A stretch of 64,000 bases of DNA from Chthoniobacteraceae bacterium. GTDB lineage: Bacteria; Verrucomicrobiota; Verrucomicrobiia; Chthoniobacterales; Chthoniobacteraceae. This document shows, one piece after another, positions 1 through 14,813 of this stretch; the first letter of the stretch is position 1; each line of letters begins with the position of its first letter. The translations under genes were made by a program, and so were the position numbers. The DNA is taken from the NCBI GenBank assembly GCA_037190965.1, contig JBBCKI010000019.1, positions 51,537 through 115,536 on the forward strand. Reading direction: 5' to 3'. The notes under the pieces are model-generated. The model worked only from the letters and a program-made list of their open reading frames with translations, had not been told where the DNA came from and did no database searches.

Positions 1-454
1 TATATTGGGCTTCTGCCTGCTCGGACTGCTTGTCGCGATCTTCCGCGGTGGGCCTACCCCCGGTGACGCTTACGAAGATCAACGTGCCGCAGAGCGGACC
101 AAGCGGCTTGCCGAGCTGCGCGAGGAAGCGCATGCGAAGCTTACGAAGTATGCGGTCGATAAGGAGAAGAAGACCGCACAGATCCCGATCGAGCGCGCCA
201 TGGAGCTGACGCTCAAGGATCTGGTTGCCAAGGGAATTTCCCCCAGTGCCGAGAAGGCCGAGATCGTCCCGAGCCTCTTGGTTCCTCCGTATCTGAAGCC
301 AGCCGTCGCAACCGAAGCTGCTCCGCAAGAAGCAGCGCCCGCTGCTTCGGCGGCTCCCATCCCTGCCGCTGCCGAACCGACGCCCGCCAGCCAGCCCAGC
401 CCGGCTGCCGAGCCCCAAACTCCCGCCACCCCGGCTGCTCCCAGCGAGAACTAG
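1..454 (+). CDS. ActG-like small membrane protein (alternative complex III accessory subunit-like), 5' truncated
   Basis: N-terminal hydrophobic stretch; LTKYAVDKEKKTAQIPIERAMEL resembles the ActG-type Y..VD....IPI.RAMEL motif; Pro/Ala-rich tail; frame open at the window edge. Confidence 0.55.
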   Translation, partial: ILGFCLLGLLVAIFRGGPTPGDAYEDQRAAERTKRLAELREEAHAKLTKYAVDKEKKTAQIPIERAMELTLKDLVAKGISPSAEKAEIVPSLLVPPYLKPAVATEAAPQEAAPAASAAPIPAAAEPTPASQPSPAAEPQTPATPAAPSEN

Positions 455-465
455 AATTTTTTTCA

Positions 466-1983
466 ATGAGCGTGCCTTCCACAGTTACTCGACAGTCCTC
501 CGGGAGAGAAGTGATCCCCGGCGAACTCGAACAGGTTGAACGGGCGTCAATCGATGCCTCCGCGCGGGTCCCCGTGCTAACCTTTTATGCCTCAGCGGTA
601 TTCTGGCTTCTGGTCCAGACCGTTCTCGGCGTGATCAACGCCGTCAAGGTCCAGTGGCCGGAGTTTCTCGACGGCTGCGCCTGGCTGACTTTTGGCCGAC
701 TCTTTCCGGTCCAGAACAGTCTGATGATTTACGGCTGGGCGAGCCTTGCCGGTATCGGCACCGCCCTCTGGATTCTTGCGCGCCTTTGCCGCGTTGCCCT
801 TCCGAAGCCGGCGATGCTGCTCACGGGAACGATGCTCTGGAACGTGGCGCTGATCGCGGGCTCCCTCGAGATCCTCGCCGGGAACGGACGCGGGTTGATT
901 TATCTGGAGTTTCCGAGGTACGTCTTCGGGCTTCTCTTCGTCGCCTATAGTATAGTGGCGGTGTGGGGAGTAATCCTGTTTTTCAATCGCCGCCCCGGGC
1001 ATATCTACATTTCCGCGTGGTATCTCATCGCGGCGCTCTTCTGGTTCCCTTGGCTCGTCGGTGGCACGAACCTTCTGCTCGGCTCCGGGCTTCCCGGTGC
1101 GGCCGGTGTTCAGGGGGTGATGCAGGCGATCGTCAATGCGTGGTTCGCACAGAACGTGATCAATCTCTGGTTGAGCGCGATTGGCTTGGGTGCCATTTAC
1201 TACCTTGTTCCGAAGGTGGTTGGCCGCCCGATTCATAGTTATCACCTTGCTTCTGTCGGTTTTTGGTCGTTCGCGATCTTCTCGGTCTGGACCGGCGGCC
1301 AGCGCCTTGCCGGTGGCCCTGTTCCTGCCTGGGTCATCACCGTGGGGATCGTCGCGGCGATCCTGATGCTCATCCCCGTCGCCACCGTGACGGCCAATTA
1401 CTTCATGACGATGAAGGGCAAGTTCAATCTTGTCTATCACAGCCCGACCATCCGGTTCGTGTTCTTCGGGGCCGTGGCTTACACGCTCGCCAATCTCGTG
1501 TTGGTGGCGGGTTCCTTCCGCAGCCTCAGCAACATCACCCAGTACACCTGGTTTACGGTGGGCAGCGATTACCTCTTCATCTACGGCTTCTACTCGATGG
1601 TGATGTTCGGGGCGATGTACTACATTATCCCGCGTCTGGTCGGCTGCGAATGGCTCTCCGCCAGTTTCATCAAGCTCCACTTCTGGGGCACCGCTTACGG
1701 ATGGGGAATGACCATCGCCATGCTGCTGCTGGCCGGTTACTCACAAGGGCAGATGCTGGCGAACGTGCATGAGGTTCATGCGACCAACGCCGGGGCTGAC
1801 TTCATGCTTTCGGTATCCGCAGCGTTGCCGTTCCTCCGTGGACGCAGCATCGCCCAGATCCTACTCTGCGTCGGCCAACTCTTCTTTGCCCTTAACTTCC
1901 TGCTGATGTTGCTGCGTCTTGGCCGTCCAAGCGGAGCCCAGCCCACCCTGTTCGCACCCATCCACGAAGGAGCCAAGTCGTGA
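466..1983 (+). CDS. cbb3-type oxidase subunit I (CcoN)-like membrane protein lacking the heme/CuB ligands
   Basis: CcoN-like segments WLTFGRL, HIYISAWY, YYLVPK...RPIHSY, YYIIPRL, LHFW; ligand His positions read Q, Q, QR and S/Y. Confidence 0.85.
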   Translation: MSVPSTVTRQSSGREVIPGELEQVERASIDASARVPVLTFYASAVFWLLVQTVLGVINAVKVQWPEFLDGCAWLTFGRLFPVQNSLMIYGWASLAGIGTALWILARLCRVALPKPAMLLTGTMLWNVALIAGSLEILAGNGRGLIYLEFPRYVFGLLFVAYSIVAVWGVILFFNRRPGHIYISAWYLIAALFWFPWLVGGTNLLLGSGLPGAAGVQGVMQAIVNAWFAQNVINLWLSAIGLGAIYYLVPKVVGRPIHSYHLASVGFWSFAIFSVWTGGQRLAGGPVPAWVITVGIVAAILMLIPVATVTANYFMTMKGKFNLVYHSPTIRFVFFGAVAYTLANLVLVAGSFRSLSNITQYTWFTVGSDYLFIYGFYSMVMFGAMYYIIPRLVGCEWLSASFIKLHFWGTAYGWGMTIAMLLLAGYSQGQMLANVHEVHATNAGADFMLSVSAALPFLRGRSIAQILLCVGQLFFALNFLLMLLRLGRPSGAQPTLFAPIHEGAKS

Positions 1984-2651
1984 AGCCTACGCCACTTCTT
2001 TTTGCCGGAATCTTTGCTTCGTTTGCCGCCGCCTGGCTTGGTCTGATCGTCGCGTCTGACACGCAGATCGGTAACCTCCAGCCGCAGGTTGACGAAGAGA
2101 ACGCCGATGTTTACCCGATCAACGTAGCCGGACTCGCCGAGCAAGGCCGCCGCGTCTACATTGCCAATGGTTGCAACTATTGCCACACGCAATTGGTTCG
2201 CGAACCCCATGCCGGCCCGGACATCGCGCGGGAATGGGGCACCCGCCGCACGGTTGCCCGGGACTACATTTACGAGAGCGGCGCTGTCATCGGGTTCATG
2301 CGAAACGGTCCGGATCTCGCCAACATCGGCGCTCCCAAGGCTGAGAATTCAAGACGGGGCTACGTCAATGATCCGAAGTGGCAGTACGCGCATCTTTACA
2401 ATCCGCGCGCGACCACCCCGGCTTCAAACATGCCCGCCTATCGCTATCTCTTCGAGAAGAGGAAGATTAGTGGCGAGCGCTCCGAGAACGCGCTGAACCT
2501 GACGGAAGCCGACGGAGTTGAGGCCGGTTACGAAATGGTCCCCAACAATGACGCCAAGGCGCTCGTCGCCTACCTCCTCTCTTTGGATAGGAGCCATCCC
2601 TTAAAAGAAGTCAAAGGAGCCGCGCCTGCCCCCGCCGCTGCTGCCAAGTGA
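1980..2651 (+). CDS. ccoO: cbb3-type subunit II (CcoO)-like monoheme cytochrome c
   Basis: N-terminal TM helix, GRRVY..NGCNYCHTQ, GPDL, HLYNPR, SNMPAY; start overlaps the upstream stop. Confidence 0.85.
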   Translation: MKPTPLLFAGIFASFAAAWLGLIVASDTQIGNLQPQVDEENADVYPINVAGLAEQGRRVYIANGCNYCHTQLVREPHAGPDIAREWGTRRTVARDYIYESGAVIGFMRNGPDLANIGAPKAENSRRGYVNDPKWQYAHLYNPRATTPASNMPAYRYLFEKRKISGERSENALNLTEADGVEAGYEMVPNNDAKALVAYLLSLDRSHPLKEVKGAAPAPAAAAK

Positions 2652-3370
2652 GCACGAAGAGCCCAGATCCTTTAATGCCCATGCAACCAGGAGAAGACGA
2701 AATTGATTATCGCGAAACGGCCGATGTGACGCGTGTCCACGGCGCAGTGAAGCGCGAGCACAAGGAACCGGAGGCGGGCATCGTCCCGGTGCCGGTCTGG
2801 TGGTTTGCCGTGGTCATCCTTGTGACCTTCGGAGCCGCCTTCTACTTCGGACAGTTCGGCGGCGGCTTCAGTGGGGAAGTCTTCAATGAACGCGAAGGTT
2901 CGCTGGCTGCCGGCGCGAAAGAAGGCGGTGCTGCCGCCGGGGCGGAAGCTGCCAAAGAGCAATCCCTCGCCGAGATCGGCAAAAAGGTTTTCAACCAGAA
3001 CTGCGCTTCCTGCCATCAGGCTAACGGGCTGGGGCTCCCCGGCACTTATCCTCCCTTGGCGGCATCGCACTGGGTCAGTGGTTCCACCAAGCGTCTGACG
3101 GCGCTCGTCCTTAAGGGGATGCAGGGGCCCGTTGTGATCGAAGGGAAGAGTTACAATGGAGCGATGCCCGCCTGGGGCCGCGACTTCAACGACAAGAAGA
3201 TGGCGGCCGTCCTGAGCTACATTCGCTCGGCCTGGGGCAACACGGCGGGAGAGATCACTCCCGAACAGGTCGCCGTGGTTCGGGCAGAGTTCGCCAGCCG
3301 GACAGAGTCATTCGCTCCGCCGGAGTTGGAAGCCATTACGGAGGATATCCCCGCGGTACCCGCCCCTTAA
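2648..3370 (+). CDS. Membrane-anchored monoheme cytochrome c
   Basis: PVPVWW TM anchor, CASCHQANG.G..G.YPPLA, YNGAMP, YIR.AWGN. Confidence 0.9.
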   Translation: MSTKSPDPLMPMQPGEDEIDYRETADVTRVHGAVKREHKEPEAGIVPVPVWWFAVVILVTFGAAFYFGQFGGGFSGEVFNEREGSLAAGAKEGGAAAGAEAAKEQSLAEIGKKVFNQNCASCHQANGLGLPGTYPPLAASHWVSGSTKRLTALVLKGMQGPVVIEGKSYNGAMPAWGRDFNDKKMAAVLSYIRSAWGNTAGEITPEQVAVVRAEFASRTESFAPPELEAITEDIPAVPAP

Positions 3371-3373
3371 ATC

Positions 3374-3401
3374 TTGCCATAATTAGTAGAATTTATATAA
3401 T
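3374..3401 (+). promoter_or_regulatory. sigma70-type promoter upstream of coxA
   Basis: TTGCCA-N16-TATAAT in an AT-rich patch immediately after the cytochrome c stop. Confidence 0.6.
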
Positions 3402-3572
3402 CCCTGAAACCCCAGCCATCCCGGCGTCTTCTGCGCGGTATTCTGCAGCAAAAGCTCTCTCTTGAGCGAGCGTCTGGACGGCGTAAGTTCGCCCCGTCGA
3501 ATTTGCTGCGGTCCTCAAAAGACCGCGGGTTTCACACATTTCAGCGTCGCCAAAGCCTCAGCAATCACACCC

Positions 3573-5384
3573 ATGGAAATCTCAACGCACTCTTCGCACT
3601 CCGGTGCGGGACATGATGATGGTCATCACGACCATCACGAGCTCGGCTTTTGGAGCAAATATGTCTTCTCCACCGATCACAAGGTGATCGGTATCCAGTA
3701 CGGGCTCTCCGGGCTTCTTTTCCTGTTCCTCGGCTTCTGCTTGATGATGCTGATGCGATGGCAGCTTGCCTACCCAGGCCAGGCACTTCCGTATTTTGGG
3801 GCCGTTCTTGCCAAGGTGTTTCCTCAAGAAATGCCCAACGGCATCATGACGCCGGACTTCTATAACTCCCTCGGCGCCATGCACGGGACGATCATGGTCT
3901 TCCTCGGCATCGTTCCTGTCTCCTTCGCGGCGTTCGGTAACTATGTCGTCCCGCTCCAGATCGGCGCACCCGACATGGCGTTCCCCAAGCTGAACATGGC
4001 AAGCTTCTGGGTATTCTTTATCGGCGGCGTCATCATGCTCATCAGCTTCTTCGTTCCCGGCGGAGCGGCGAAGAGCGGCTGGACCTCCTATCCTCCTCTT
4101 GCCAACATTGCGGACACCGGCCCCGCGTTCCACCACATCTGGAACGGCCAGACGCTCTGGTTGATGGGCATGGTCTTCCTGATCACCTCCTCGCTGCTTG
4201 GCTCGGTGAACATCATTACCACGGTGATCCAGCTTCGCGCTCCCGGGTTGACCTGGATGCGCCTCCCGTTCTTCACCTGGGCGATCCTGGTGACCTCCTA
4301 TATTCTCCTCCTCGCGTTTCCTCCGCTTGAAGCCGCCGGCATCATGCAGTTGATGGATCGTGTCGCAGGTACCTCGTTCTTCAGTCCGAACGGCTTGATC
4401 GTCAGCAGCCTCGGTGGCCAGCTCGACATCAGCGGTGGCGGCAGCCCGCTTCTGTGGCAGCACCTCTTCTGGTTCCTCGCGCACCCGGAAGTTTACGTTC
4501 TTATTCTTCCCGCGCTAGGAATTGTGGCCGAAGTTATCGCCAACAACACCCGCAAGCCGCTCTGGGGCTACAAGGCGATGGTCTTCTCCGCCCTTTTCCT
4601 CGGGTTCCTCTCGTTCCTTGTCTGGGCGCACCACATGTATCTCACGGGCATGGGTACCAAGGTGAGCGCTTTCTTCCAGACGACCACCATCATGATTTCG
4701 GTGCCGTCGGTCATTATTCTCACGGCGCTTCTGATCTCGCTCTGGGGAGGGTCCATCCGTTTCACCACGCCGATGCTCTTCGCGACGGCGTTCCTCCCGA
4801 TGTTCGGCATCGGCGGTCTGACGGGTCTGCCCCTGGCGTTCAACTCGCTGGACGCCTACCTCCACGACACCTACTACATCATCGGTCACTTTCACTATAT
4901 CGTCGCGCCCGGTACGATCTTCGGCATCTTCGCAGGGGTCTACTACTGGTATCCCAAGATGACGGGCCGCACGATGAGCGACACGCTCGGTAAGCTCCAC
5001 TTCTGGGGTTCGCTCATTACGATCAACGGCATCTTCTTCCCGATGTTCCTCCAGGGTATGGCGGGGATGCACCGCCGCTGGTATGACGGCGGCCATGTTT
5101 ACGAACAGATCAGCGGGCCGATGCTCCACTGGAACAGCTTCATGTCCTGGTCGGCATGGTTGCTTGGCATTGTTCAGATCTTCTTCATCATCAACGTCTT
5201 CTGGAGCATCCGGAATGGCCGCAAGGTGAACACGAATCCCTGGGATGCGACGACCCTCGACTGGAGCACTCCGTCGCCCCCTCCTCACGGCAACTTCGAC
5301 AAGCCGGTTACGGTTTATCGTGGGCCGTATGAATACAGCGTCCCCGGTGCCGCTAAGGATTTCTCTCCCCAGGCAGAAGCATAA
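3573..5384 (+). CDS. coxA: Cytochrome c oxidase subunit I, A-family (A1)
   Basis: STDHK, MHGTIM, GAPDMAFP, WFLAHPEVY, WAHHM, LHDTYY, GHFHY, GMHRR; ATG 3573 preferred over TTG 3462. Confidence 0.97.
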   Translation: MEISTHSSHSGAGHDDGHHDHHELGFWSKYVFSTDHKVIGIQYGLSGLLFLFLGFCLMMLMRWQLAYPGQALPYFGAVLAKVFPQEMPNGIMTPDFYNSLGAMHGTIMVFLGIVPVSFAAFGNYVVPLQIGAPDMAFPKLNMASFWVFFIGGVIMLISFFVPGGAAKSGWTSYPPLANIADTGPAFHHIWNGQTLWLMGMVFLITSSLLGSVNIITTVIQLRAPGLTWMRLPFFTWAILVTSYILLLAFPPLEAAGIMQLMDRVAGTSFFSPNGLIVSSLGGQLDISGGGSPLLWQHLFWFLAHPEVYVLILPALGIVAEVIANNTRKPLWGYKAMVFSALFLGFLSFLVWAHHMYLTGMGTKVSAFFQTTTIMISVPSVIILTALLISLWGGSIRFTTPMLFATAFLPMFGIGGLTGLPLAFNSLDAYLHDTYYIIGHFHYIVAPGTIFGIFAGVYYWYPKMTGRTMSDTLGKLHFWGSLITINGIFFPMFLQGMAGMHRRWYDGGHVYEQISGPMLHWNSFMSWSAWLLGIVQIFFIINVFWSIRNGRKVNTNPWDATTLDWSTPSPPPHGNFDKPVTVYRGPYEYSVPGAAKDFSPQAEA

Positions 5385-5395
5385 TTTTCTCTACA

Positions 5396-6271
5396 ATGGA
5401 AATTCCATATACAGTCAAGCCGAGGCCGGACACGGGTCTCTGGAATGCGAAGATCGGCATCTGGCTCTTCCTCGCCTCGGAAGTGATGCTCTTCGGCGGT
5501 CTCTTTTCGGCATACATTTTCCTGCGTCTCGGCGCGGAACCGGGTTATTGGCCCAAGGGTCTTTTGAACGTTCCGGTCGGCACCATCAATACGGCCATCC
5601 TGATCGCCTCTTCGGTCAGCGTGGTTTTTGCCTGGGCGGCGCTCAAGATGCGGAACTTCAAGCGGTATCGCCTCTGCATGATGTTCACCCTGTTGTGCGG
5701 GGTGGTCTTCCTCGGGGTGAAGCTCGGTTACGAGTGGCCCGCCAAGTACCATCATTTCGGCGCTTTCATCAAACCGGAAGCCCGTGCCAAGTACGAAGAG
5801 TTCCTGGGCAACGAGCACCTGGCTGCGAAGGGGTTGCACCCCCGTGTCGAAATTAGCGGACACCTGGAGAACCACGACGCCCTGCATGACAAGGAGATCA
5901 AGGAATACCACATCCGGCTGGATGCGGTGAACGCGGACCCGACCTCTCCCGCCAACGATCACCCGCACTTCTGGCCTCGCCCGATGTCGGACAAGGTGGC
6001 GCACGTCGCGAAGGAAGACGTCCAGTGGGCAAGCATGTTCCTGCCCAAACACAGCACTTACTTTGCCGTATACTACACGATCACCGGTCTGCACGGGTTG
6101 CACGTCTTGGGCGGTCTGGTCATGTTTGCGTACTTCCTGCTTCCGGTCAGCACGCGCCTTTACCAGAAGGATCCCGATCATCTGGCGAACCGGATCGAAG
6201 TGGTGGGACTTTTCTGGCACTTCGTCGACCTCGTCTGGATTTTCGTTTTCCCGCTGTTCTATCTCCTCTAG
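5396..6271 (+). CDS. coxC: Cytochrome c oxidase subunit III with a long hydrophilic insertion
   Basis: WLFLASEVMLFGGLF, TGLHGLHV, GLFWHFVDLVW. Confidence 0.95.
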   Translation: MEIPYTVKPRPDTGLWNAKIGIWLFLASEVMLFGGLFSAYIFLRLGAEPGYWPKGLLNVPVGTINTAILIASSVSVVFAWAALKMRNFKRYRLCMMFTLLCGVVFLGVKLGYEWPAKYHHFGAFIKPEARAKYEEFLGNEHLAAKGLHPRVEISGHLENHDALHDKEIKEYHIRLDAVNADPTSPANDHPHFWPRPMSDKVAHVAKEDVQWASMFLPKHSTYFAVYYTITGLHGLHVLGGLVMFAYFLLPVSTRLYQKDPDHLANRIEVVGLFWHFVDLVWIFVFPLFYLL

Positions 6272-6290
6272 CCGATTTTAATCCATCTCT

Positions 6291-6644
6291 ATGAGCGATC
6301 CTCATCAACACGGCTCTCCCGCTACCGCGGCCGATCACCCGGTTCCGCATGACGCCGCGCATTTCCACGACCATTCCAAGCTTTACCTCGGGGTTGGGGC
6401 AGCCCTGCTGGTCCTGACGGCGGCCACGGTCGGACTGTCGTATGTTCATTTCGGCTCCGAAGAAATGAACATTCTGATCGGCATGCTCCTCGCGACCTTC
6501 AAGGCCTCGCTGGTGGCGTTGATTTTCATGCACCTCAAGGAAGAAAAGATGACCATTTACCAGTTCATGCTCGCGACGATGGTGTTCGTCACCGGGCTGT
6601 TCCTTTTGACGCTCCTGGCGTTCAAAGATCACATCGTCCTCTGA
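6291..6644 (+). CDS. Cytochrome c oxidase subunit IV (CtaF/COX4_pro-like)
   Basis: Three TM helices, KASLVALIFMHL motif. Confidence 0.9.
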   Translation: MSDPHQHGSPATAADHPVPHDAAHFHDHSKLYLGVGAALLVLTAATVGLSYVHFGSEEMNILIGMLLATFKASLVALIFMHLKEEKMTIYQFMLATMVFVTGLFLLTLLAFKDHIVL

Positions 6645-6689
6645 TCTCACCCACGAATCACGGAACCAAACCAAAGAAGAACCCATTTT

Positions 6690-6893
6690 ATGTCACTTCG
6701 CGGAGTTCATATCCTCTTCATCCTCCTCAGTGTCCTGCTCTCGTTCCTGCTGGCAGCTTTCGAGCTGACAGTATACCGGCAGGGTCACGCGTTGGTTGAC
6801 GGGGTGGTCGCTTCGCTCTCGGCTGCAATTGGGTTGGGTCTCGCGGCTTACGGAATCTGGTTCATCCGGAAATCGGGGAAATCCACCGTATGA
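6690..6893 (+). CDS. Small two-TM membrane protein
   Basis: 67 aa, MSLRGVHILFI start, two hydrophobic helices, inside the cox operon and overlapping the next ORF. Confidence 0.7.
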   Translation: MSLRGVHILFILLSVLLSFLLAAFELTVYRQGHALVDGVVASLSAAIGLGLAAYGIWFIRKSGKSTV

Positions 6894-7165
6894 ACCGCCC
6901 TCTGAACATCACGCTTCCTGCCCTTCTGATTTCCATATCGATGAAGGGGAACGCCCTTGCCTGCGCGGTATGCACCGGCTCGGCCGATGCTCCTATCGCC
7001 CCGGCGATGAACGCGTCGATGGTGTTTCTTCTCGCTGCCATCGCGGTTGTCGGCAGCATGTTTTTCGGTTTTTTAATCTATCTTGCCCGGCGGGACGGCC
7101 TGCCTGCAAACGTTAATCAAGAACTCTCCGGGGAGATGGAATCCCCTATCTCTCAACAAAGCTGA
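6890..7165 (+). CDS. Small membrane protein with signal-like N-terminus and CxxC (CAVC) motif
   Basis: ALA-CAVC then one TM helix; coupled to the upstream ORF; stop 1 nt before the coxB ATG. Confidence 0.7.
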   Translation: MNRPLNITLPALLISISMKGNALACAVCTGSADAPIAPAMNASMVFLLAAIAVVGSMFFGFLIYLARRDGLPANVNQELSGEMESPISQQS

Positions 7166-7166
7166 T

Positions 7167-7982
7167 ATGTTGAATAAATTGTTAGGAATGCCCCTGAATG
7201 CTTCCGAGCACGGGTTTCAAGTCGACCAGATGCTCGAGTTTGTGCACTGGATCATGCTGGTGCTCTTCGTCGGGTGGTCGACATTCTTCATCTTTACTTT
7301 GATCCGCTTCCACAAGTCGCGGAACCCGAAGGCGGATTACCACGGCGTAAAATCCAAGGCTTCCACTCACATCGAGTTCATGGTGGTGCTGGTGGAGTCG
7401 GTCTTTCTGCTCGGGTTCGGTATTCCCCTGTGGGGCAAGCGAGTTAATGGACCAAAGCCGGAAGGAGGCGACGTGGAACGTGTCCGCGTGGTCGCCGAGC
7501 AGTACAAGTGGAACTTTCATTATCCCGGCGCAGACGGGGTGATCGGCCGCCGGAAGACTGAACTCGTGAGTGCTTCGAACCCTGTAGGGCTCGACTACAC
7601 GGATCCTGCCGCGAAGGACGATATTGTGACCGCCAACGAGATGCACCTCCCGGTCAACAAAGATGTCATCCTGGAGATCAGCTCCAAGGACGTCATTCAT
7701 AGCCTTTCGCTCCAGTTCATGCGCATCGGCCAGGACGCGACGCCCGGCCTGGTGAGCCCCATCTGGTTCAAGCCGGTCAGGACCGGCGAGTTCGAGATCA
7801 TCTGCGGCCAGCTTTGCGGTTACGGTCACTACCTCATGCGCGGAAACATGGTCATTGATTCCGCCGAGGATTATCAGGCCTGGTTGAAGGAGAAGGCGGC
7901 AAATGCCGGCGCTCCTGCTGCACCGGCTGCCGGCGCCGCAACTCCTGCTCCTGCCGCCCCTCCCGCAGGGGCCGCGCACTAG
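7167..7982 (+). CDS. coxB: Cytochrome c oxidase subunit II (CuA), no fused cytochrome c
   Basis: Two TM helices, QYKWNFHY, DVIH, CGQLCGYGHYLM; ATG 7167. Confidence 0.95.
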   Translation: MLNKLLGMPLNASEHGFQVDQMLEFVHWIMLVLFVGWSTFFIFTLIRFHKSRNPKADYHGVKSKASTHIEFMVVLVESVFLLGFGIPLWGKRVNGPKPEGGDVERVRVVAEQYKWNFHYPGADGVIGRRKTELVSASNPVGLDYTDPAAKDDIVTANEMHLPVNKDVILEISSKDVIHSLSLQFMRIGQDATPGLVSPIWFKPVRTGEFEIICGQLCGYGHYLMRGNMVIDSAEDYQAWLKEKAANAGAPAAPAAGAATPAPAAPPAGAAH

Positions 7983-8083: not shown

Positions 8084-9052
8084 ATGCAACCGGCTAAACT
8101 CTGGCTATCCCGCTACGCAAAGTTCGTCGTCGTCTTCACACTGTTTCTGATTTCAGTGGGTGGCACGGTGACGACCAAGAAGGCGGGGCTGGCAGTGCCG
8201 GATTGGCCCACCAGCTTCGGGTACAACATGTTCACTCTCCCGTTCCACTTTTGGGAGGGGGACGCTCTTTTGGAGCATTCGCATCGCCTGGTTGGCTCCG
8301 TGATGGGGATGCTGGTCATTGGCCTTTTGATCTGGACGGCCTGCGTGGAACGACGCTCGTGGGTCAAGCAGCTCACCTGGGTCGCGTTGGTCATGGTGAT
8401 TGTGCAAGGGATCATGGGCGGGCTGCGCGTCACGGAGCTCTCCATTGCCTGGGCCATCGTCCACGGCTGCACGGCTCAAGCCTTTCTTTGTCTTTTGCTC
8501 CTGATCGCGGTTGCGCTCTCGCCGGAATGGGACCGTCCTCTGGCTGCTTCGGTGAGCCCGGCGCGCGTGGCGAATTGGCGGCACTGGGCCTGGATCGTCG
8601 TCGGTGCCGTTTTTCTTCAGTTGTTTTTGGGGGCCTTCATGAGGCACATCGATGCCGGGCTGGCGATTCCGACCTTCCCTCTCACCCCCGAAGGGACCTT
8701 CATGCCGACCGTGCATAACAAGCACGTCGATATTCACTTCGCCCATCGTTTCTGGGCTCTGGTGGTGACGGTGCTTGTTGGAATCCTGACCACCAAGGTG
8801 CTCCGGTCCGCATGGGCGGAAAGGCGCTTCCGTCGACCCGCATTGGGCCTCATCGTGCTTCTGATCGTTCAGATTGCACTTGGAGCCTCGATTATCTGGA
8901 CCCAACGCGCTTCCCATCCGACGACTCTCCACGTGGTGAACGGTGCCGTGGTGCTGGCATTGAGCTTTCTTCTGGGCATTCGGGCGAACCGTTTTTCCAA
9001 GGCCCATAACGATCAACCTTTTTCGGCCTCCCCCACGCCGCTTCAAGCATGA
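8084..9052 (+). CDS. ctaA: Heme A synthase (COX15/CtaA)
   Basis: GLAVPDWP, EHSHR, QGIMGG, HFAHR; about 8 TM helices. Confidence 0.9.
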   Translation: MQPAKLWLSRYAKFVVVFTLFLISVGGTVTTKKAGLAVPDWPTSFGYNMFTLPFHFWEGDALLEHSHRLVGSVMGMLVIGLLIWTACVERRSWVKQLTWVALVMVIVQGIMGGLRVTELSIAWAIVHGCTAQAFLCLLLLIAVALSPEWDRPLAASVSPARVANWRHWAWIVVGAVFLQLFLGAFMRHIDAGLAIPTFPLTPEGTFMPTVHNKHVDIHFAHRFWALVVTVLVGILTTKVLRSAWAERRFRRPALGLIVLLIVQIALGASIIWTQRASHPTTLHVVNGAVVLALSFLLGIRANRFSKAHNDQPFSASPTPLQA

Positions 9053-9984
9053 ACGAAATCACGCAATTAGAGGGGATGGAGGGTAATCAGGCCCAGCGGC
9101 AGGGCTCCATCGAGGAGGCTGGCCTCGCCGGTTTCGTCGGAGACGTCATGCTTCTGGTCAAGGCGCGTCTGACGCTGCTGGTGGTTATCACCACGTTTGT
9201 CGGTTTTTGCATGGCGAGCCGTGGCTCCCTCGACTGGGCGCAACTTGCCCATACCGTGGTCGGCACCGCCCTGGTGGCCGCCGCCGCCGCCGCTTTCAAT
9301 CAGGTGTTGGAGATCAACGTTGACCGCCTCATGGAGCGGACCCGTCAGCGTCCGATCGCCGCGGGCCGGATGACCAAGAAGACGGCAATCCTGCTCGGTT
9401 CGATCATGGCCATCGGGGGCTTTGCCCAGCTCGCCATCGCCACCACGTGGGTCGCCGCTTATCTCTCGGCGGCTTCATTCCTGATCTACATTCTTTTCTA
9501 CACTCCGATGAAGCGTCACACGGCGCTTTGCGTGACGATCGGCGCGGTTTCCGGCGCCATTCCGCCGGTGATCGGCTGGACCGCGGTGGATGGCTCTTTT
9601 GGCATCGGCGCGTGGGTGCTGTTCGGGATTCTCTTTGCCTGGCAGATGCCCCACTTTCTTGCGATTGCCTGGATGTACCGGGACGAGTATTCGCAAGCCG
9701 GGTTTGTCATGCTGCCCAGGAAGGATTTTTCGGGGGCGTGGACAGCGGCTCAGGCGCTTCTTTACTCTGTGGCTCTCACGGCCTGCACGCTGGTTCCGTT
9801 CTTTACCGGAGAAGGGGGAGCTCTTTATCTCACGGGAGCGCTCGTGTTCGATCTTTTGATGGTGGCCTGTTCGATCTACTTCATGGTGCAGCGGACACGG
9901 CAGGCGGCGCGGCTTCTCTTTTTCTCATCGATCGTGTACCTTCCCGGGCTGCTGTTGTGCCTGATGGTTTTTACCAAACCTTGA
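9049..9984 (+). CDS. ctaB: Protoheme IX farnesyltransferase (heme O synthase)
   Basis: NQ.LE..VD.LMERT..RP, YTPMKR, GAIPPVIGW, WQMPHF. Confidence 0.95.
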   Translation: MNEITQLEGMEGNQAQRQGSIEEAGLAGFVGDVMLLVKARLTLLVVITTFVGFCMASRGSLDWAQLAHTVVGTALVAAAAAAFNQVLEINVDRLMERTRQRPIAAGRMTKKTAILLGSIMAIGGFAQLAIATTWVAAYLSAASFLIYILFYTPMKRHTALCVTIGAVSGAIPPVIGWTAVDGSFGIGAWVLFGILFAWQMPHFLAIAWMYRDEYSQAGFVMLPRKDFSGAWTAAQALLYSVALTACTLVPFFTGEGGALYLTGALVFDLLMVACSIYFMVQRTRQAARLLFFSSIVYLPGLLLCLMVFTKP

Positions 9985-10144
9985 TTCGGTCGGTTATAAG
10001 CCGGTTCTGAACCGGTCCGAACCTTGCCGCGGAAGGCGGCCTTTTGAAGTCCTGTCAGTGACACAGGGGCGCGCGGTGAAACTGTGTGTAGACAGGGAGG
10101 AGGGGATCTTCTCCTCCTTTTAACCCTTGGGGAGTCAGCTTTTC

Positions 10145-10792
10145 GTGAAAAAAATCATCTACTTTATCGCGTTATTGGTGGCGGTTGGAGGGGTCTCCTT
10201 GCAGCTCTGGCTGACCAAGCTGAGCCGTGAGCGCTCTGATGTCATTGTGCGCTCCGTCCCCGCTCAGGAGGGTTTCAGGGAATACTCCACGGTGCCGGAT
10301 TTCCAGTTTACCGACAGAAGCGGCAAGCCGGTATCGTTGGGCGACCTCAAAGGCAAGGTTTGGCTGGCGAATTTCATTTACACGACCTGCCCGACCACCT
10401 GCCCCATGCTCAGCAACCGGCTTTCGGCTCTTCAGGAAGCGGCGCTCGGAAAGGGAAACGGCGACGAAGTCCGGTTGATTTCTTTTTCCGTGGATCCGGA
10501 CAACGACACGCCGGAAGTGCTCCAGGGGTATGCCACTGCCCTGAAGGCGCAGGACCGCTGGCTTTTCCTGACCGGTCATAAGCAGCAAATCGAGCGCATC
10601 GCCCGGCAAGGGTTCCTGCTTGGGTTCGAGAAAGTCCCGGGAATTTCCAACGACATCAGCCATAGCACGAAGATCGCGCTGGTGGACCGGAAGGGAGTCG
10701 TCCGAGCTTTTTACGATGGGATCGGAGAGAACGACGAAACCCCGAAGATTCTGAAAGACATCGACGCCTTGCTCAAGGAGGACGGTAAATGA
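10145..10792 (+). CDS. SCO family copper chaperone
   Basis: FIYTTCPTTCP, SVDPDNDTP, ISHS; start GTG 10145 or TTG 10127. Confidence 0.92.
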   Translation: MKKIIYFIALLVAVGGVSLQLWLTKLSRERSDVIVRSVPAQEGFREYSTVPDFQFTDRSGKPVSLGDLKGKVWLANFIYTTCPTTCPMLSNRLSALQEAALGKGNGDEVRLISFSVDPDNDTPEVLQGYATALKAQDRWLFLTGHKQQIERIARQGFLLGFEKVPGISNDISHSTKIALVDRKGVVRAFYDGIGENDETPKILKDIDALLKEDGK

Positions 10793-11232
10793 CGATCAGC
10801 GATCTCCCCGCGCTCAATGCCAGTCTCAACTCATTGAGCACACTGTTTCTCCTCTTCGGGTGGTGGTTCATCCGGAAGGACCGAAAGAAGCAGCACATCA
10901 CGATGATGGTCTGTGCGCTGGTAACCTCCACGCTCTTCCTGGCCTCGTACCTTACCTACCACTTCAACGTCGCCGCGGTGACCAAGTTCGAAGCGGAGGG
11001 GATTATTCGCCCCATTTATCTGACGATCCTGGCGACTCATGTCGTCCTCGCCATGGTGATCGTGCCAATGGTGATCATGACCGTTGTTCCCGCGCTGCGC
11101 GCCCGATTCGATCGCCATCGGCGGATCGCCCGGTGGACCCTTCCGCTCTGGCTTTATGTTTCCGTGACCGGGGTGCTTGTCTACTTCATGCTCTACCAAT
11201 GGTTCCCGCCATCGTCCGTCGCCGCTTCCTGA
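10789..11232 (+). CDS. DUF420 (CtaM-like) membrane protein
   Basis: LPALNASLN, LFLASYL.YH, H.RIARWT.PLWLYVSVTGV. Confidence 0.9.
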   Translation: MTISDLPALNASLNSLSTLFLLFGWWFIRKDRKKQHITMMVCALVTSTLFLASYLTYHFNVAAVTKFEAEGIIRPIYLTILATHVVLAMVIVPMVIMTVVPALRARFDRHRRIARWTLPLWLYVSVTGVLVYFMLYQWFPPSSVAAS

Positions 11233-11245
11233 CCCTTATCCCTGT

Positions 11246-13147
11246 ATGAGCGCACATTGGAGCGAAAAGACCTGGCGAGAACATATCGAGAATCGGCGGC
11301 AGCAGTCGGCAGTGTGGCAGTTCATCCATCTGTGCGGCTCGATGAGGCTGGCGATGGTGCTGCTTTTCACCATCCTCGTGGCGTGCGCGATCGCCACGCT
11401 TTACGAATCCAAGTTCACCGCCCAGATCGCCCAGGCTTATGTCTACAAAAGTCAGTGGTTCATCTTCTGGCTCGCGGTGCTTTGCATCAACCTGTTTTGC
11501 GTCACGCTGACGCGCTGGCCTTGGAGACCGAAGCATTGGGGGTTTGTGATCACCCATTACGGCATCATTCTCCTGCTGATCGGCGCTGCCGTCGGGCAGA
11601 AGCTCGGGTTTGAAGCCAACGTCACGCTGCGGGTTGGCGGAGGGGCGACTCGGGACCTCATCATCAACCGGACGATTCTCCAGGTGCAAAGCGGTCAGGA
11701 CCGGCTGGCTTACAAGATCCCTGTCGACGTTCACATCCGGCCTCCGGTGCCGGAGCGCCCCAAGGCGATTGCCCTCCCGGCAAGCAAGCTCAAGTTGCGA
11801 ATCGAAAACTACGCGGAACTCGGGGAAACCCCTGAGCTGGTGGAATCGCCCCTTCCGAAATCGGGCGCCGGGGTGGCGCTGGAGTTTTCTTCCGGCATGA
11901 TGGCGCAGAGCGTCCCCGTCAACCTCACGCGTCTTCCGGAGACCGCCAGCAGCAATGACTTTTTTGGCCGGGCTCGGATCGAACTGGTCGATCAACTGCC
12001 GGATCGCTCGGGAGCGCAAGCCCCGGATCTCGCCTTTGAGGAATCGCAGATGGTCTTTGCGCAGTCCGAGCCGGTTATCTCCACCCGCAAGGGGAAGCCG
12101 AGCGGTTATCGGCTGGCGTTGATCATGGAGGGAGCCACGCCTCAGGTGGTCGTGGAATCGCCGCTTTCGACACCCGCCCCGGGTCACGGGGGCGGAGCGT
12201 CACCGCGCCGCGAGATGTTCGAGCTTTCCAAGATTCTCGGCAAGCCGTTCTCCCTTCAGGGGGAGGCGACGGAGATTCACATCCGGGAGTACTGGCCCGA
12301 CATGGAATTGCGCGACGGCGTCCCTGTTTCGAAGTCCGACGAACCCAACAACCCCGCCATGCTGGTGTTGATTTCCGGACAGGGCGCAGGGGAGAAGCCG
12401 TTGTTGGAAATCGCAATGGCGGAAGGAGGCGGGATTGTCTATCAGATGAGCCGGGGTGGCGCGGTCGCGGCCTCCGGAAAGGCGGCGGTGGGGGAGAGTT
12501 TCCAACTCGGGTGGGCCGACTGGAAGGCGTTGGTCAAGCAGGCGCTTCCCAACGCGATGATCCGCAACCAGCTTTCGCCTGTCGATGAAAAGGCGGCAGC
12601 CGCATCCGGCCGAGAAAGTCTGACCCCGGGGATCTTCGCCCGTCTGGTGGACCGGCAGAAGGGCGAGGGAGAAGCGGAATGGATTCCCTCCGGACGCGGC
12701 ACCATGTTGCGACTCGGCGACGAGACGGCTTTTGTCGGCTTCGGCCTGGAGGTTTACAAGCTTCCGTTCACCATTGAATTGTTGAAGTTCGAGGTGCCTC
12801 GCGACCCGGGGACTGAAACCCCGGCAGACTTCCAGAGCAGCGTCCGCTTTACCGACTCCGCCACCGGACAGACAGTCGATTCGTTTATTCACATGAACAA
12901 CCCGGCCAGTTTCCCGGAGGGGTTCTGGCGGGCGGCACTGGGACGCAATTTCAAGTTCTCTCAGGCTCAATGGAACGCCCGCGATCTCAACGAAACGACG
13001 CTGCAGATTCTGCATGATCCGGGCTGGCCGCTCAAGTGGATCGGCTCGCTGGGCATTTGCATTGGCATTGCAATCATGTTTTACGGCAAACCGGCGGGAT
13101 CGAAGAACCGCAAGCAATCCACGCGCAAAAGCGCAAAAACCGCATAA
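11246..13147 (+). CDS. ResB-like cytochrome c biogenesis protein (System II)
   Basis: Three N-terminal TM helices with THYGII, large soluble domain, MNNP, C-terminal DPGWPLKW.G TM. Confidence 0.8.
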   Translation: MSAHWSEKTWREHIENRRQQSAVWQFIHLCGSMRLAMVLLFTILVACAIATLYESKFTAQIAQAYVYKSQWFIFWLAVLCINLFCVTLTRWPWRPKHWGFVITHYGIILLLIGAAVGQKLGFEANVTLRVGGGATRDLIINRTILQVQSGQDRLAYKIPVDVHIRPPVPERPKAIALPASKLKLRIENYAELGETPELVESPLPKSGAGVALEFSSGMMAQSVPVNLTRLPETASSNDFFGRARIELVDQLPDRSGAQAPDLAFEESQMVFAQSEPVISTRKGKPSGYRLALIMEGATPQVVVESPLSTPAPGHGGGASPRREMFELSKILGKPFSLQGEATEIHIREYWPDMELRDGVPVSKSDEPNNPAMLVLISGQGAGEKPLLEIAMAEGGGIVYQMSRGGAVAASGKAAVGESFQLGWADWKALVKQALPNAMIRNQLSPVDEKAAAASGRESLTPGIFARLVDRQKGEGEAEWIPSGRGTMLRLGDETAFVGFGLEVYKLPFTIELLKFEVPRDPGTETPADFQSSVRFTDSATGQTVDSFIHMNNPASFPEGFWRAALGRNFKFSQAQWNARDLNETTLQILHDPGWPLKWIGSLGICIGIAIMFYGKPAGSKNRKQSTRKSAKTA

Positions 13148-13160
13148 GTCTTCTCACGCG

Positions 13161-14813
13161 ATGAAAACATATCTGTTGGCTTTCTTTCTGGCGTTGGCGG
13201 TTTCCGCCTCGGCCGCGATTACCGATTTCTCCGGTGTTGAGAATATCCCCATCCAGGGCGGTGGCCGCGAGAAGCCGTATTTCACCTACGCCACCGAAAC
13301 ACTCCAGACGCTCACCGGGCGGGCCACCTACCGCGACGGCGAAAGGAAGATCCCTGCGATGGAGGCGATCTTCGACATCGGTTTCCACCCGCACGCATGG
13401 GGCGAACGCCCGCTGATCCTGATCGATTACAAGCCGCTCAAGGAAGCCATTGGGCTCCCGACCGATCGCAAGCTTTTCTCGCTCTCGGAGCTCGCCGCGA
13501 ACGAAGGCCTCAAGGAACGGGTCGCGGAAGTTGAAAAGCTGTTGGGCGATCCTGCCAAGCCGAAGCTGAACCGCGAGCAGACCGAGGTCAGCGAGATCAC
13601 CGCCCGCGTCAGGCTGGCTCACGCCTTGATGGAGGGCAACGCGTTCGCTTTTGTCCCGCATCCCTCGGGCCCGGTGTGGCTGCCTGTCGCGTTTGTCGCC
13701 AAGGCTTACCCCAACGCGGGGGGAGAGGCGGTTGCGCAGGGCTGGACGGAACTAGGAAACGCCTTTTTGAAGGGGGATGACACGGCCTTCAGGTCGGCTG
13801 CCGGGAAGTTTGCCAGCGGGCTTTCCGCGTTGCGTCCGGACGCCTACCCAAGCGCGGATGTCATGAAGCTAGAGACCGTCTACGGCAAGGCTCATCCGTT
13901 CCGCTGGGCGTGGCTCCTCTACGCGCTGGCTGCAATCGTGCTTTGGGTGACCACGCTTTGGGCGAGGTCGGGCGGATATCGGATTGCCTGGGGCCTCATC
14001 TCCATCGGCTTCGTTCTCCAGATTGCGGGCTTTGTCGCCCGGATCATTATCGGCGGGCGGGGGCCGGTCACCAATATGTACGAGTCGGTGATCTGGGCGG
14101 CCTTCGGGACGATCCTCTTCGCCATGATTCTGGAGGCGATCTACCGTTCGCGGTATATGTTCCTCGGGGCGACTCCCGTGGCGGTGGTTTGCCTCATTCT
14201 TGCCGACACACAGACGACCATTCTCAAGCCTTCCATCGATCCGCTGGCGGCGGTATTGAGGAACAACTTCTGGCTATCCACCCATGTCACCAGCATCACG
14301 CTCAGCTACGCGGCGTTTGCGCTGGCGCTCGGGGTGGGGCATATCGTGTTGGGAAAAGTGTTTTTCAGGCGGCCTGTTTCCGCCGCCCTTTACAACTATC
14401 TCTACCGCTCGCTCCAGATCGGGGTTCTGTTGCTGGCCATCGGGACGATTCTCGGCGGCGTCTGGGCCAACGTCTCCTGGGGCCGGTTTTGGGACTGGGA
14501 CCCGAAGGAAACCTGGGCGTTAATCGCGCTGTTAGGTTATCTGGCAATCCTGCACGGTCGCATTGCCGGGTGGTGGAAAGGTTTTGGCCTGGCAGTCGGC
14601 TCGGTGCTGGCGTTCCAGTCGGTGCTGATGGCGTGGTACGGCGTCAATTTTGTCCTCGGCGAGGGCTTGCATAGTTATGGATTCGGGACGGGGGGCTTCC
14701 CTGCCGTGCTCGCTTATGTCATTGCCGAGGTCGTCTTCGTCGCCCTGGTTATTGCCCGTCGCAAGAAGGAGTCGGCGGCGGCCGAACCCGAGGTCGAAGA
14801 GATCGAGGCATAG
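13161..14813 (+). CDS. ccsA: Cytochrome c biogenesis protein CcsA/ResC
   Basis: PVTNMYES, WLSTHV, WANVSWGRFWDWDPKETW, GLHSY. Confidence 0.93.
   Translation: MKTYLLAFFLALAVSASAAITDFSGVENIPIQGGGREKPYFTYATETLQTLTGRATYRDGERKIPAMEAIFDIGFHPHAWGERPLILIDYKPLKEAIGLPTDRKLFSLSELAANEGLKERVAEVEKLLGDPAKPKLNREQTEVSEITARVRLAHALMEGNAFAFVPHPSGPVWLPVAFVAKAYPNAGGEAVAQGWTELGNAFLKGDDTAFRSAAGKFASGLSALRPDAYPSADVMKLETVYGKAHPFRWAWLLYALAAIVLWVTTLWARSGGYRIAWGLISIGFVLQIAGFVARIIIGGRGPVTNMYESVIWAAFGTILFAMILEAIYRSRYMFLGATPVAVVCLILADTQTTILKPSIDPLAAVLRNNFWLSTHVTSITLSYAAFALALGVGHIVLGKVFFRRPVSAALYNYLYRSLQIGVLLLAIGTILGGVWANVSWGRFWDWDPKETWALIALLGYLAILHGRIAGWWKGFGLAVGSVLAFQSVLMAWYGVNFVLGEGLHSYGFGTGGFPAVLAYVIAEVVFVALVIARRKKESAAAEPEVEEIEA

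Follow-up and report, generated by a model that had tools for sequence, protein, structure and literature searches.

A ligand-less CcoN in alternative complex III operons of Verrucomicrobiota and its proposed role as a platform for a tethered cytochrome c

Introduction

How can an alternative complex III (ACIII) with a pentahaem ActA reach an oxidase whose subunit II carries no haem c? This question is raised by a locus of a Chthoniobacteraceae bacterium (phylum Verrucomicrobiota; assembly GCA_037190965.1, the source genome G000), which we analysed in a window of 64,000 nucleotides (contig JBBCKI010000019.1; G000:C19:51537-115536). At the start of the window, genes for CcoN, CcoO and a CcoP-like cytochrome c, the subunits of a cbb3 oxidase, stand between actG of an ACIII operon and the genes of an A-type haem-copper oxidase (HCO). 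An original prediction, made from the letters of the window, held that a cbb3 oxidase had been repurposed here, its inactive CcoN holding two haem c subunits as an electron relay to CuA in place of the haem c of a caa3 oxidase.

Earlier reports, in their accessible parts, treat the "cbb3" encoded next to ACIII in Opitutaceae and in methanotrophs of the phylum as a working high-affinity oxidase (PMC8498564, PMC6688271, PMC11102522), and databases and papers list the gene as a high-affinity cbb3 and take it as a sign of microaerobic ability. Titles, abstracts and open passages, older subscription papers being out of reach, contained no report of ligand loss in an ACIII-linked CcoN; the gene cluster itself is already known, as a working cbb3. 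Here we describe this loss, its distribution in the phylum and its relation to the A-type oxidase. We favour, with a probability of roughly 0.6, the reading that the locus is a verrucomicrobial ACIII operon with a built-in CcoNOP module, whose CcoN is now a pseudoenzyme platform for a CcoP-like cytochrome serving CuA.

Ligand loss in CcoN

The CcoN of the window aligns end to end with Pseudomonas stutzeri CcoN (3MK7_A, E=1e-39) and has the 12-helix fold and the descent of the C family: the top Foldseek matches of its AlphaFold model (predicted local distance difference test, pLDDT, 91) are all CcoN, with a TM-score of 0.85/0.92 against CcoN. Its TIGR00780 score is 173 bits, under the cut-off of 583. 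Relative to 3MK7_A the replacements are H60->Q83, H207->Q229, Y251->S273, H257/H258->Q279/R280, H345->S367 and H347->Y369. We take the six histidines to be the ligands of haem b, haem b3 and CuB, and Y251 to be the cross-linked tyrosine. None of the six ligand histidines (0/6) remains, and Ser273 replaces the tyrosine; the protein has eight histidines elsewhere, so that the "His-less" CcoN of the original prediction is to be read as ligand-less. Unlike the nitric oxide (NO) reductases and other HCO variants with altered ligands described in the open part of PMC11214002, the window copy has no binuclear-site histidine left. Judged by their residues, the CcoN proteins of the lineages that have lost ligand histidines (dead, as opposed to intact ones with all six) appear incapable of binding the catalytic metals.

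Dead as they are, these genes are under purifying selection. The ratio of nonsynonymous to synonymous substitution rates (dN/dS) is 0.127 between the window gene and its relative L006, and has a median of 0.098 (range 0.04-0.25) in dead pairs, where 17 of 18 were usable and all 17 lay far below 1; intact pairs have a median of 0.067 (range 0.03-0.14; 9 of 12 usable), and ActB and ActF fall in a similar range. Conserved CcoN columns lost in dead lineages number 39 of 166, including the ligand positions and their neighbours; another 49 columns, of structural importance, are retained in no fewer than 10 of 11 lineages.

With the cbb3 CcoNOP of P. stutzeri (3MK7) the module shares the fold, the N-O-P gene order, the CcoO haem and, in a structural prediction, a CcoP-like anchor on CcoN. 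It differs in having no ligands for haem b, haem b3 and CuB and no cross-link tyrosine, in the single c552-type haem of its CcoP-like subunit, and in its place within an ACIII operon. One separate locus (L069) encodes a CcoN with six histidines and no tyrosine and a CcoO lacking its methionine, with only an actA fragment nearby; early decay after the loss of ACIII is a possible explanation.

The ACIII genes expected just upstream of the window were found there: actA-F occupy window positions -7783 to -48, directly before actG, and the set actA-actG is complete. The upstream actA encodes 217 aa with five CxxCH motifs, actE has one CxxCH, and actB (Fe-S), actC (NrfD) and actD are present; ActF, for which there was no Pfam match, was assigned by its position and its homology to the gene at the same position in other loci. 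A PDB search with the first open reading frame (ORF) as a single sequence gave nothing, and a profile of 48 homologues later matched Chloroflexus ActG (8K9E_G, E=1.6e-5), so that the ActG-like assignment holds, as does the proposed order on one strand, ActG-like, CcoN, CcoO, cytochrome and coxA/C/D/B, all (+). From actA through the cytochrome gene (2648-3370) the intergenic gaps are -4 to 27 nt, forming one translationally coupled run.

Haem c subunits and the predicted complex

Both haem c subunits have the motifs claimed for them, CNYCH with a methionine (Met151) in CcoO, the partner of CcoN, and CASCH with a methionine (Met173) in the monohaem cytochrome. The cytochrome linker spans 16-37 residues among homologues, and the N-terminus matches FixP_N (PF14715) weakly in 13 of 49 homologues and not in the window copy. 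Among solved structures, those nearest to the haem domain are Thermus c552 and the tethered cytochrome of copper nitrite reductase (CuNiR), both of which donate electrons to a cupredoxin copper. At dead loci the CxxCH motif is kept in 94/94 CcoO proteins and 93/93 cytochromes, and the cytochrome methionine in 92/93; the sole miss is a truncated ORF, so the residue is invariant in complete proteins.

A complex of CcoN (residues 18-498) and CcoO (1-212) with the cytochrome (15-235) as partner was predicted together with three controls. The cytochrome anchor was placed on dead CcoN with a score of 0.71, the best control reaching 0.00, a pass that may reflect likeness to the solved CcoNOP complexes; the mark applied is passed by 116 of 157 solved pairs and 2 of 215 mismatched pairs. 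At least 85% of contacts were the same between runs, and the pLDDT of the partner was at least 73. Confident contacts involve cytochrome residues 30-83 only and none in the haem domain, which fits a mobile haem domain.

Two variants of the gene arrangement were seen elsewhere. L015, L018, L024 and some ten Chthoniobacter loci like them encode a CcoP-like protein whose c552 domain is duplicated, giving two haems, and directly after it a soluble copy of c552, and in L157-L161 an ordinary CcoN is preceded by a seven-CxxCH protein.

Distribution and number of inactivations

We sampled 301 genomes evenly across the phylum. The family alignment is matched in 92 of them, from which we took the 79 best non-self matches (at least 220 bits) and one weaker match. 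These 80 sampled loci comprise 71 linked to ACIII (41 with six histidines, 30 dead) and nine other ordinary CcoN. An ActC search of the same sample yielded one further genome of the same class with this ActC type, from which the module is absent (G039). The act-actG-ccoN-ccoO-cytochrome module is present in 72 of 73 genomes with this ACIII type (41 intact, 31 dead), a count that includes the source genome and G001, whose act genes and ccoN are split between two contig ends, and leaves out G238 and G070, which belong to a different class, have a similar ActC and show actA-E followed by other genes. In these two (L227 and L228) actF is missing and the following genes form an Nqr/Rnf-like set, as judged from N-terminal sequences only.

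Among 80 named loci, which were picked because they resemble the query, the closest being Chthoniobacteraceae metagenome-assembled genomes, 68 are dead and 12 have six histidines. Where the flank was long enough (at least 2.5 kb upstream for dead loci), act genes were found at 86/86 dead and 48/49 intact loci, 16 loci, of which 12 dead, being too short to judge; the co-occurrence of ligand-less ccoN with act genes that the original prediction invited us to check is thus borne out. Since, in addition, 118 of the best 120 CcoN homologues keep at most two of the six histidines, the ligand loss is not a chance event.

Changes between the dead and intact states number 11 on an ActC/D/E/F tree (119 loci, FastTree), eight on a CcoO plus cytochrome tree (38 rows) and three on CcoN trees, where long dead branches may attract each other. 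Since seven residues are unlikely to have been regained other than by gene transfer, we read these changes as repeated inactivations, no fewer than three and perhaps some ten in number. In many relatives the ancestral type of module is a complete cbb3 oxidase. The module holds an apparent pseudoenzyme of an HCO catalytic subunit that arose more than once and has living intact and intermediate relatives. In 31 of the 72 module genomes, among them many soil Chthoniobacterales and all four methanotrophs that carry the gene, binding of the catalytic metals by CcoN would be impossible; a second CcoN-family match is present in 20 of these 31 (that of the source genome is intact) and none in 11.

The gene cluster is the same as the ACIII-adjacent "cbb3" of Opitutaceae and methanotrophs, as far as the published accounts are accessible, and it is intact in 41 sampled genomes; it differs from the published description in being dead in 31 sampled genomes, in 4/4 genomes that encode particulate methane monooxygenase (pMMO) and have it, and in a printed sequence of Methylacidiphilum caldifontis IT6. 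Five sampled genomes encode pMMO, four carrying the module with one histidine left and the fifth lacking it; the four otherwise have only A-type, ba3-type and cytochrome c-dependent nitric oxide reductase (cNOR) subunits. Their COX1 matches of about 197 bits were considered as CcoN and rejected, being cNOR. The methanotroph genomes G111, G279, G093 and G132 each have a second, stand-alone coxA paralogue without the K-channel lysine.

For IT6, Supplementary Dataset 7 of PMC11102522 gives the first ~400 aa of CcoN, which, read by eye, has S, E, S, H, F and V at the histidine positions and S at that of the tyrosine; the published "cbb3" lacks five of six histidines in this portion of the record. 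Transcripts per million (TPM) in the same source are 110/83 for ccoN, 239/81 for ccoO, 245/115 for ccoP and 102-528/30-254 for the act genes, with 1052/857 for ctaD, 817/1386 for ctaC and 923/6841 for ctaE, the column order (O2, then N2O) being inferred from nosZ. In the first condition cox genes stand at 640-1052 and ccoNOP at 110-245, and ctaE/coxD rise strongly where ccoO/ccoP fall; in the data available there, the module transcripts track act, not cox. A preprint, in the part available, describes the IT6 "cbb3" as unchanged between oxic and anoxic growth.

Relation to the A-type oxidase

The CoxB of the window has a CuA motif and no CxxCH, in agreement with the original prediction that it lacks a fused cytochrome c domain, and adjacent CoxB is without haem c in 36/36 cases. 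Cox genes follow the module at 8/29 dead and 2/40 intact loci of the even sample, and at 30/51 dead and 6/9 intact named loci. One sub-lineage has the start of coxB no more than ~15 nt from the stop codon of the cytochrome gene, and two different haem-c-less oxidase operons were found behind the cytochrome. CoxB next to an intact CcoN has no CxxCH either (10/10); the arrangement is therefore independent of inactivation. Examination of the best CoxB match of each genome showed a fused haem c in 21 of 30 dead genomes, nine of which had no other CoxB match.

The cytochrome gene and coxA are separated by 202 nt, a gap overlooked in the original prediction together with two small ORFs and the loss of the K-channel lysine. 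It contains a sigma70-like promoter candidate (Table 1), and the TTGCCA-16 site recurs at the same place in L006-L009 and is not clear in more distant loci. The promoter scan gave a total of 3 against a shuffle mean of 4.5 and the terminator scan was at chance level, so the evidence for a coxA promoter is its 11/12 consensus match and its conservation in these four close relatives.

Cox adjacency at 8 of 29 dead loci, genomes with caa3 only, the same layout around intact CcoN, the promoter-like site of coxA and the loss of the module in G039 together indicate that a role dedicated to aa3 is not general. Co-distribution with an adjacent haem-c-less aa3 is only partial, and a haem-c-fused CoxB is the only one found in 9/30 dead genomes. 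The idea of a repurposed cbb3 whose CcoN holds a haem c relay to CuA may stand as regards scaffold and relay; a dedicated aa3 supercomplex is not supported as a general arrangement.

Proposed mechanism and alternatives

We propose that dead CcoN, with CcoO, would be a membrane platform keeping the CcoP-like protein beside ACIII. The c552-type haem domain would swing on its linker, receive electrons from ActA/ActE, perhaps through CcoO, and pass them to the CuA of whichever A-type oxidase the cell has, that is, the neighbouring haem-c-less CoxB at our locus and a caa3 elsewhere. The anchoring of the cytochrome on dead CcoN is modelled; we infer that the module attaches to ACIII and that the path runs ActA/ActE -> (CcoO) -> c552 domain -> CuA. 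The A-type oxidase would be a partner under its own regulation, with no fixed place in the module. The cytochrome of the intact ancestor could have served both oxidases, and once the A-type oxidase carried O2 reduction the platform alone would have been needed.

Such a scheme would give a testable answer to how ACIII with a pentahaem ActA reaches an oxidase without haem c, the tethered cytochrome filling the role of the sixth, mobile ActA haem of Flavobacterium. Flavobacterium johnsoniae ACIII-aa3, in the accessible parts of PMC8552683 and PMC8361435, likewise has a membrane-anchored mobile monohaem that feeds aa3, and a short subunit III; its shuttle is the sixth ActA haem, whereas here ActA is pentahaem and the candidate shuttle would sit on a dead oxidase subunit. 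Pentahaem ActA, ActE and ActG are shared with Rhodothermus-type ACIII plus caa3, whose layout is that of a second cluster of the source genome (C66); the window CoxB differs from that type in lacking haem c.

In favour of the proposal we count the coupled run from act to the cytochrome, the module's presence in 72 of 73 genomes, the low dN/dS and the retained structural columns of dead CcoN, the kept haem motifs, the predicted complex, the relatives of the haem domain, the gene content of G216, the closeness of coxB to the cytochrome gene in one sub-lineage, and IT6 ccoNOP transcripts at levels like those of act. Several observations weigh against it. The CcoO methionine is altered in six complete dead proteins (three to histidine) and in one six-histidine protein (L069), so a tuned two-haem wire is not universal. 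The complex prediction may owe its pass to the solved CcoNOP structures, and the predicted interface columns of dead lineages are not better retained than conservation-matched columns (p=0.58). The finding of a CuA subunit with an A-type subunit I in 30/30 dead genomes (the source genome also has a CuA oxidase), against CuA in 33/41 intact genomes, speaks for the proposal, but this co-occurrence is confounded by kinship. G039 keeps ACIII and a haem-c-less CoxB without CcoN/CcoO and has a soluble c552 paralogue, hence the module is dispensable where such a paralogue exists; four methanotroph genomes, relatives of G039, keep both the module and a soluble c552. The notion that the soluble c552 of G039 is a released copy of the tethered cytochrome was dropped, as these four module-bearing genomes have one too.

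An unlikely alternative is the stable ACIII-CcoN/O/P-aa3 supercomplex of the original prediction, with two haem c subunits specifically replacing the haem c of caa3. The gene order recurs at our locus and in four methanotroph genomes, and the uniform lack of haem c in adjacent CoxB, the two distinct oxidase operons behind the cytochrome and the short form of CoxC, which resembles the Flavobacterium subunit mediating ACIII contact in the accessible reports, all speak for it; against these stand the low cox adjacency and the nine caa3-only dead genomes, the identical layout around intact CcoN, the separate promoter-like site of coxA and the divergent cox and ccoNOP transcripts in the available IT6 data.

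It seems improbable that dead CcoN/CcoO are only structural or assembly partners of ACIII, with ActE reducing the oxidase directly and the haems largely vestigial, although direct reduction of caa3 by ActE has been proposed for R. marinus, as far as that source is open, the CcoO methionine varies, and the module persists in G198 and G192, where caa3 is the sole CuA oxidase and neither a further CcoN nor a bd oxidase was found. The cytochrome CxxCH and methionine would hardly be invariant in complete proteins if the haems were vestigial, and ACIII does occur without the module, in G039 and at 13 loci of another ACIII subtype with caa3 genes and no CcoN.

We give still less weight to the module being a general periplasmic electron port of ACIII for other partners (intact cbb3, ba3, NosZ or peroxidases) or a point of electron entry. 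The second CcoN-family matches of 20 dead genomes would suit it, as would the nos gene cluster inserted between actF and actG in G132 (L240), an arrangement described for IT6 too in the open part of its report; the 11 dead genomes without a second CcoN do not. Nor does G216, whose PF00034 domains are ActE and the tethered cytochrome only and in which the A-type next to the module, with its haem-c-less CoxB, is the one COX1 besides CcoN; it also has a bd oxidase, and no alternative c-type acceptor was found there among PF00034, PF00115 and PF00116.

That CcoN gained a new activity, be it through a low-spin haem b kept for sensing or as a quinone-side centre or through an ion path, is very improbable. 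The 99 dead proteins include 29, which would suit this view, that keep both haem b histidines and lack all four of CuB/b3, besides 16 with one binuclear-site histidine and 54 with neither set; the window copy and 69 others lack at least one haem b ligand, and the replacing residues vary between lineages with no shared new site. The long branches and the complete loss in G039 might point to a decaying pseudogene, a view virtually dismissed by open full-length frames, a dN/dS far below 1 in all usable pairs and transcription in IT6.

The cox cluster and other features

Table 1. Features of the analysed window (positions in the window unless given as contig coordinates)
Feature	Position	Strand	Remarks
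Analysed window	G000:C19:51537-115536		source genome G000
ActG, 3' part	1..454	+	start codon lies 46 nt before the window
Ligand-less CcoN, pseudo-oxidase subunit I, 505 aa	466..1983	+	C-family fold kept; six His and Tyr replaced
CcoO, membrane-anchored monohaem c	1980..2651	+	CNYCH, Met151
CcoP-like anchor, ~27-aa Ala/Gly/Glu linker and c552-type monohaem domain	2648..3370	+	CASCH, Met173
Sigma70-like promoter TTGCCA-16-TATAAT before coxA	3374..3401	+	candidate; 11/12 consensus match only
CoxA, A1-type subunit I	3573..5384	+	metal-ligand motifs and D-channel residues kept; K-channel Lys -> Ile382
CoxC, subunit III	5396..6271	+	Pfam match starts at model position 77, an N-terminally short form
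CoxD, caa3-type subunit IV	6291..6644	+	
67-aa hydrophobic ORF	6690..6893	+	conserved in these cox clusters; no family
91-aa small membrane ORF	6890..7165	+	conserved CxxC after a signal-like stretch; no Pfam family
CoxB	7167..7982	+	CuA motif; without a fused haem c; additional Glu in helix II
Maturation genes ctaA, ctaB, SCO, DUF420, ResB, ResC/CcsB	8084..14813	+	

The oxidase of the window has the features of an A1-type aa3, namely six histidines, HPEVY, the D-channel Asp/Asn and a CuA motif in subunit II. At the K-channel lysine (K354), I, L or V stands in 44 of 64 aligned CoxA rows, some loci being present twice. CoxA proteins without this lysine usually have Glu253, and their CoxB has an extra Glu or Asp in helix II where others have Pro: 25 of 32 paired loci combine an acidic residue with no lysine and seven combine Pro with lysine, in two clades that are not independent. 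It is possible that the acidic residue of subunit II compensates for the missing lysine. K-channel-less A-family oxidases, as described in the open parts of two sources (bioRxiv 2020.03.01.968255; 10.64898/2026.01.22.701106), also have K354 changed to a hydrophobic residue and the D-channel kept; those of the former are A2-type and have lost E78 of subunit II, whereas the window oxidase is A1-type and, besides this Glu, which it keeps, carries another acidic residue in helix II.

A more speculative extension, which we regard as doubtful, is that an HCO was repeatedly turned into a cofactor-free adaptor, ACIII with dead CcoN/CcoO and the tethered c552 docking on an A1 oxidase in which a Glu of subunit II replaces the K-channel lysine. 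If it were true, soil Chthoniobacterales and Methylacidiphilum would be without any ACIII-linked high-affinity oxidase, and one operon would allow a comparison of live and fully dead stages with half-dead ones that have haem b only.

The 67-aa ORF, which has look-alike clusters in Acidobacteriota and Verrucomicrobiota, is possibly an extra oxidase subunit, and the 91-aa ORF with its CxxC may be a copper-handling accessory. Beyond the window the source genome has an intact fused CcoNO-CcoP cluster on C23, and a second ACIII plus caa3 cluster on C66. In the CoxA of the latter (G000:C66:32212-33837, (-) strand) a Pro (CCT) replaces the first CuB histidine (FYSPPAVY; SHPAVY in relatives), reflecting either an assembly error or an inactivated copy.

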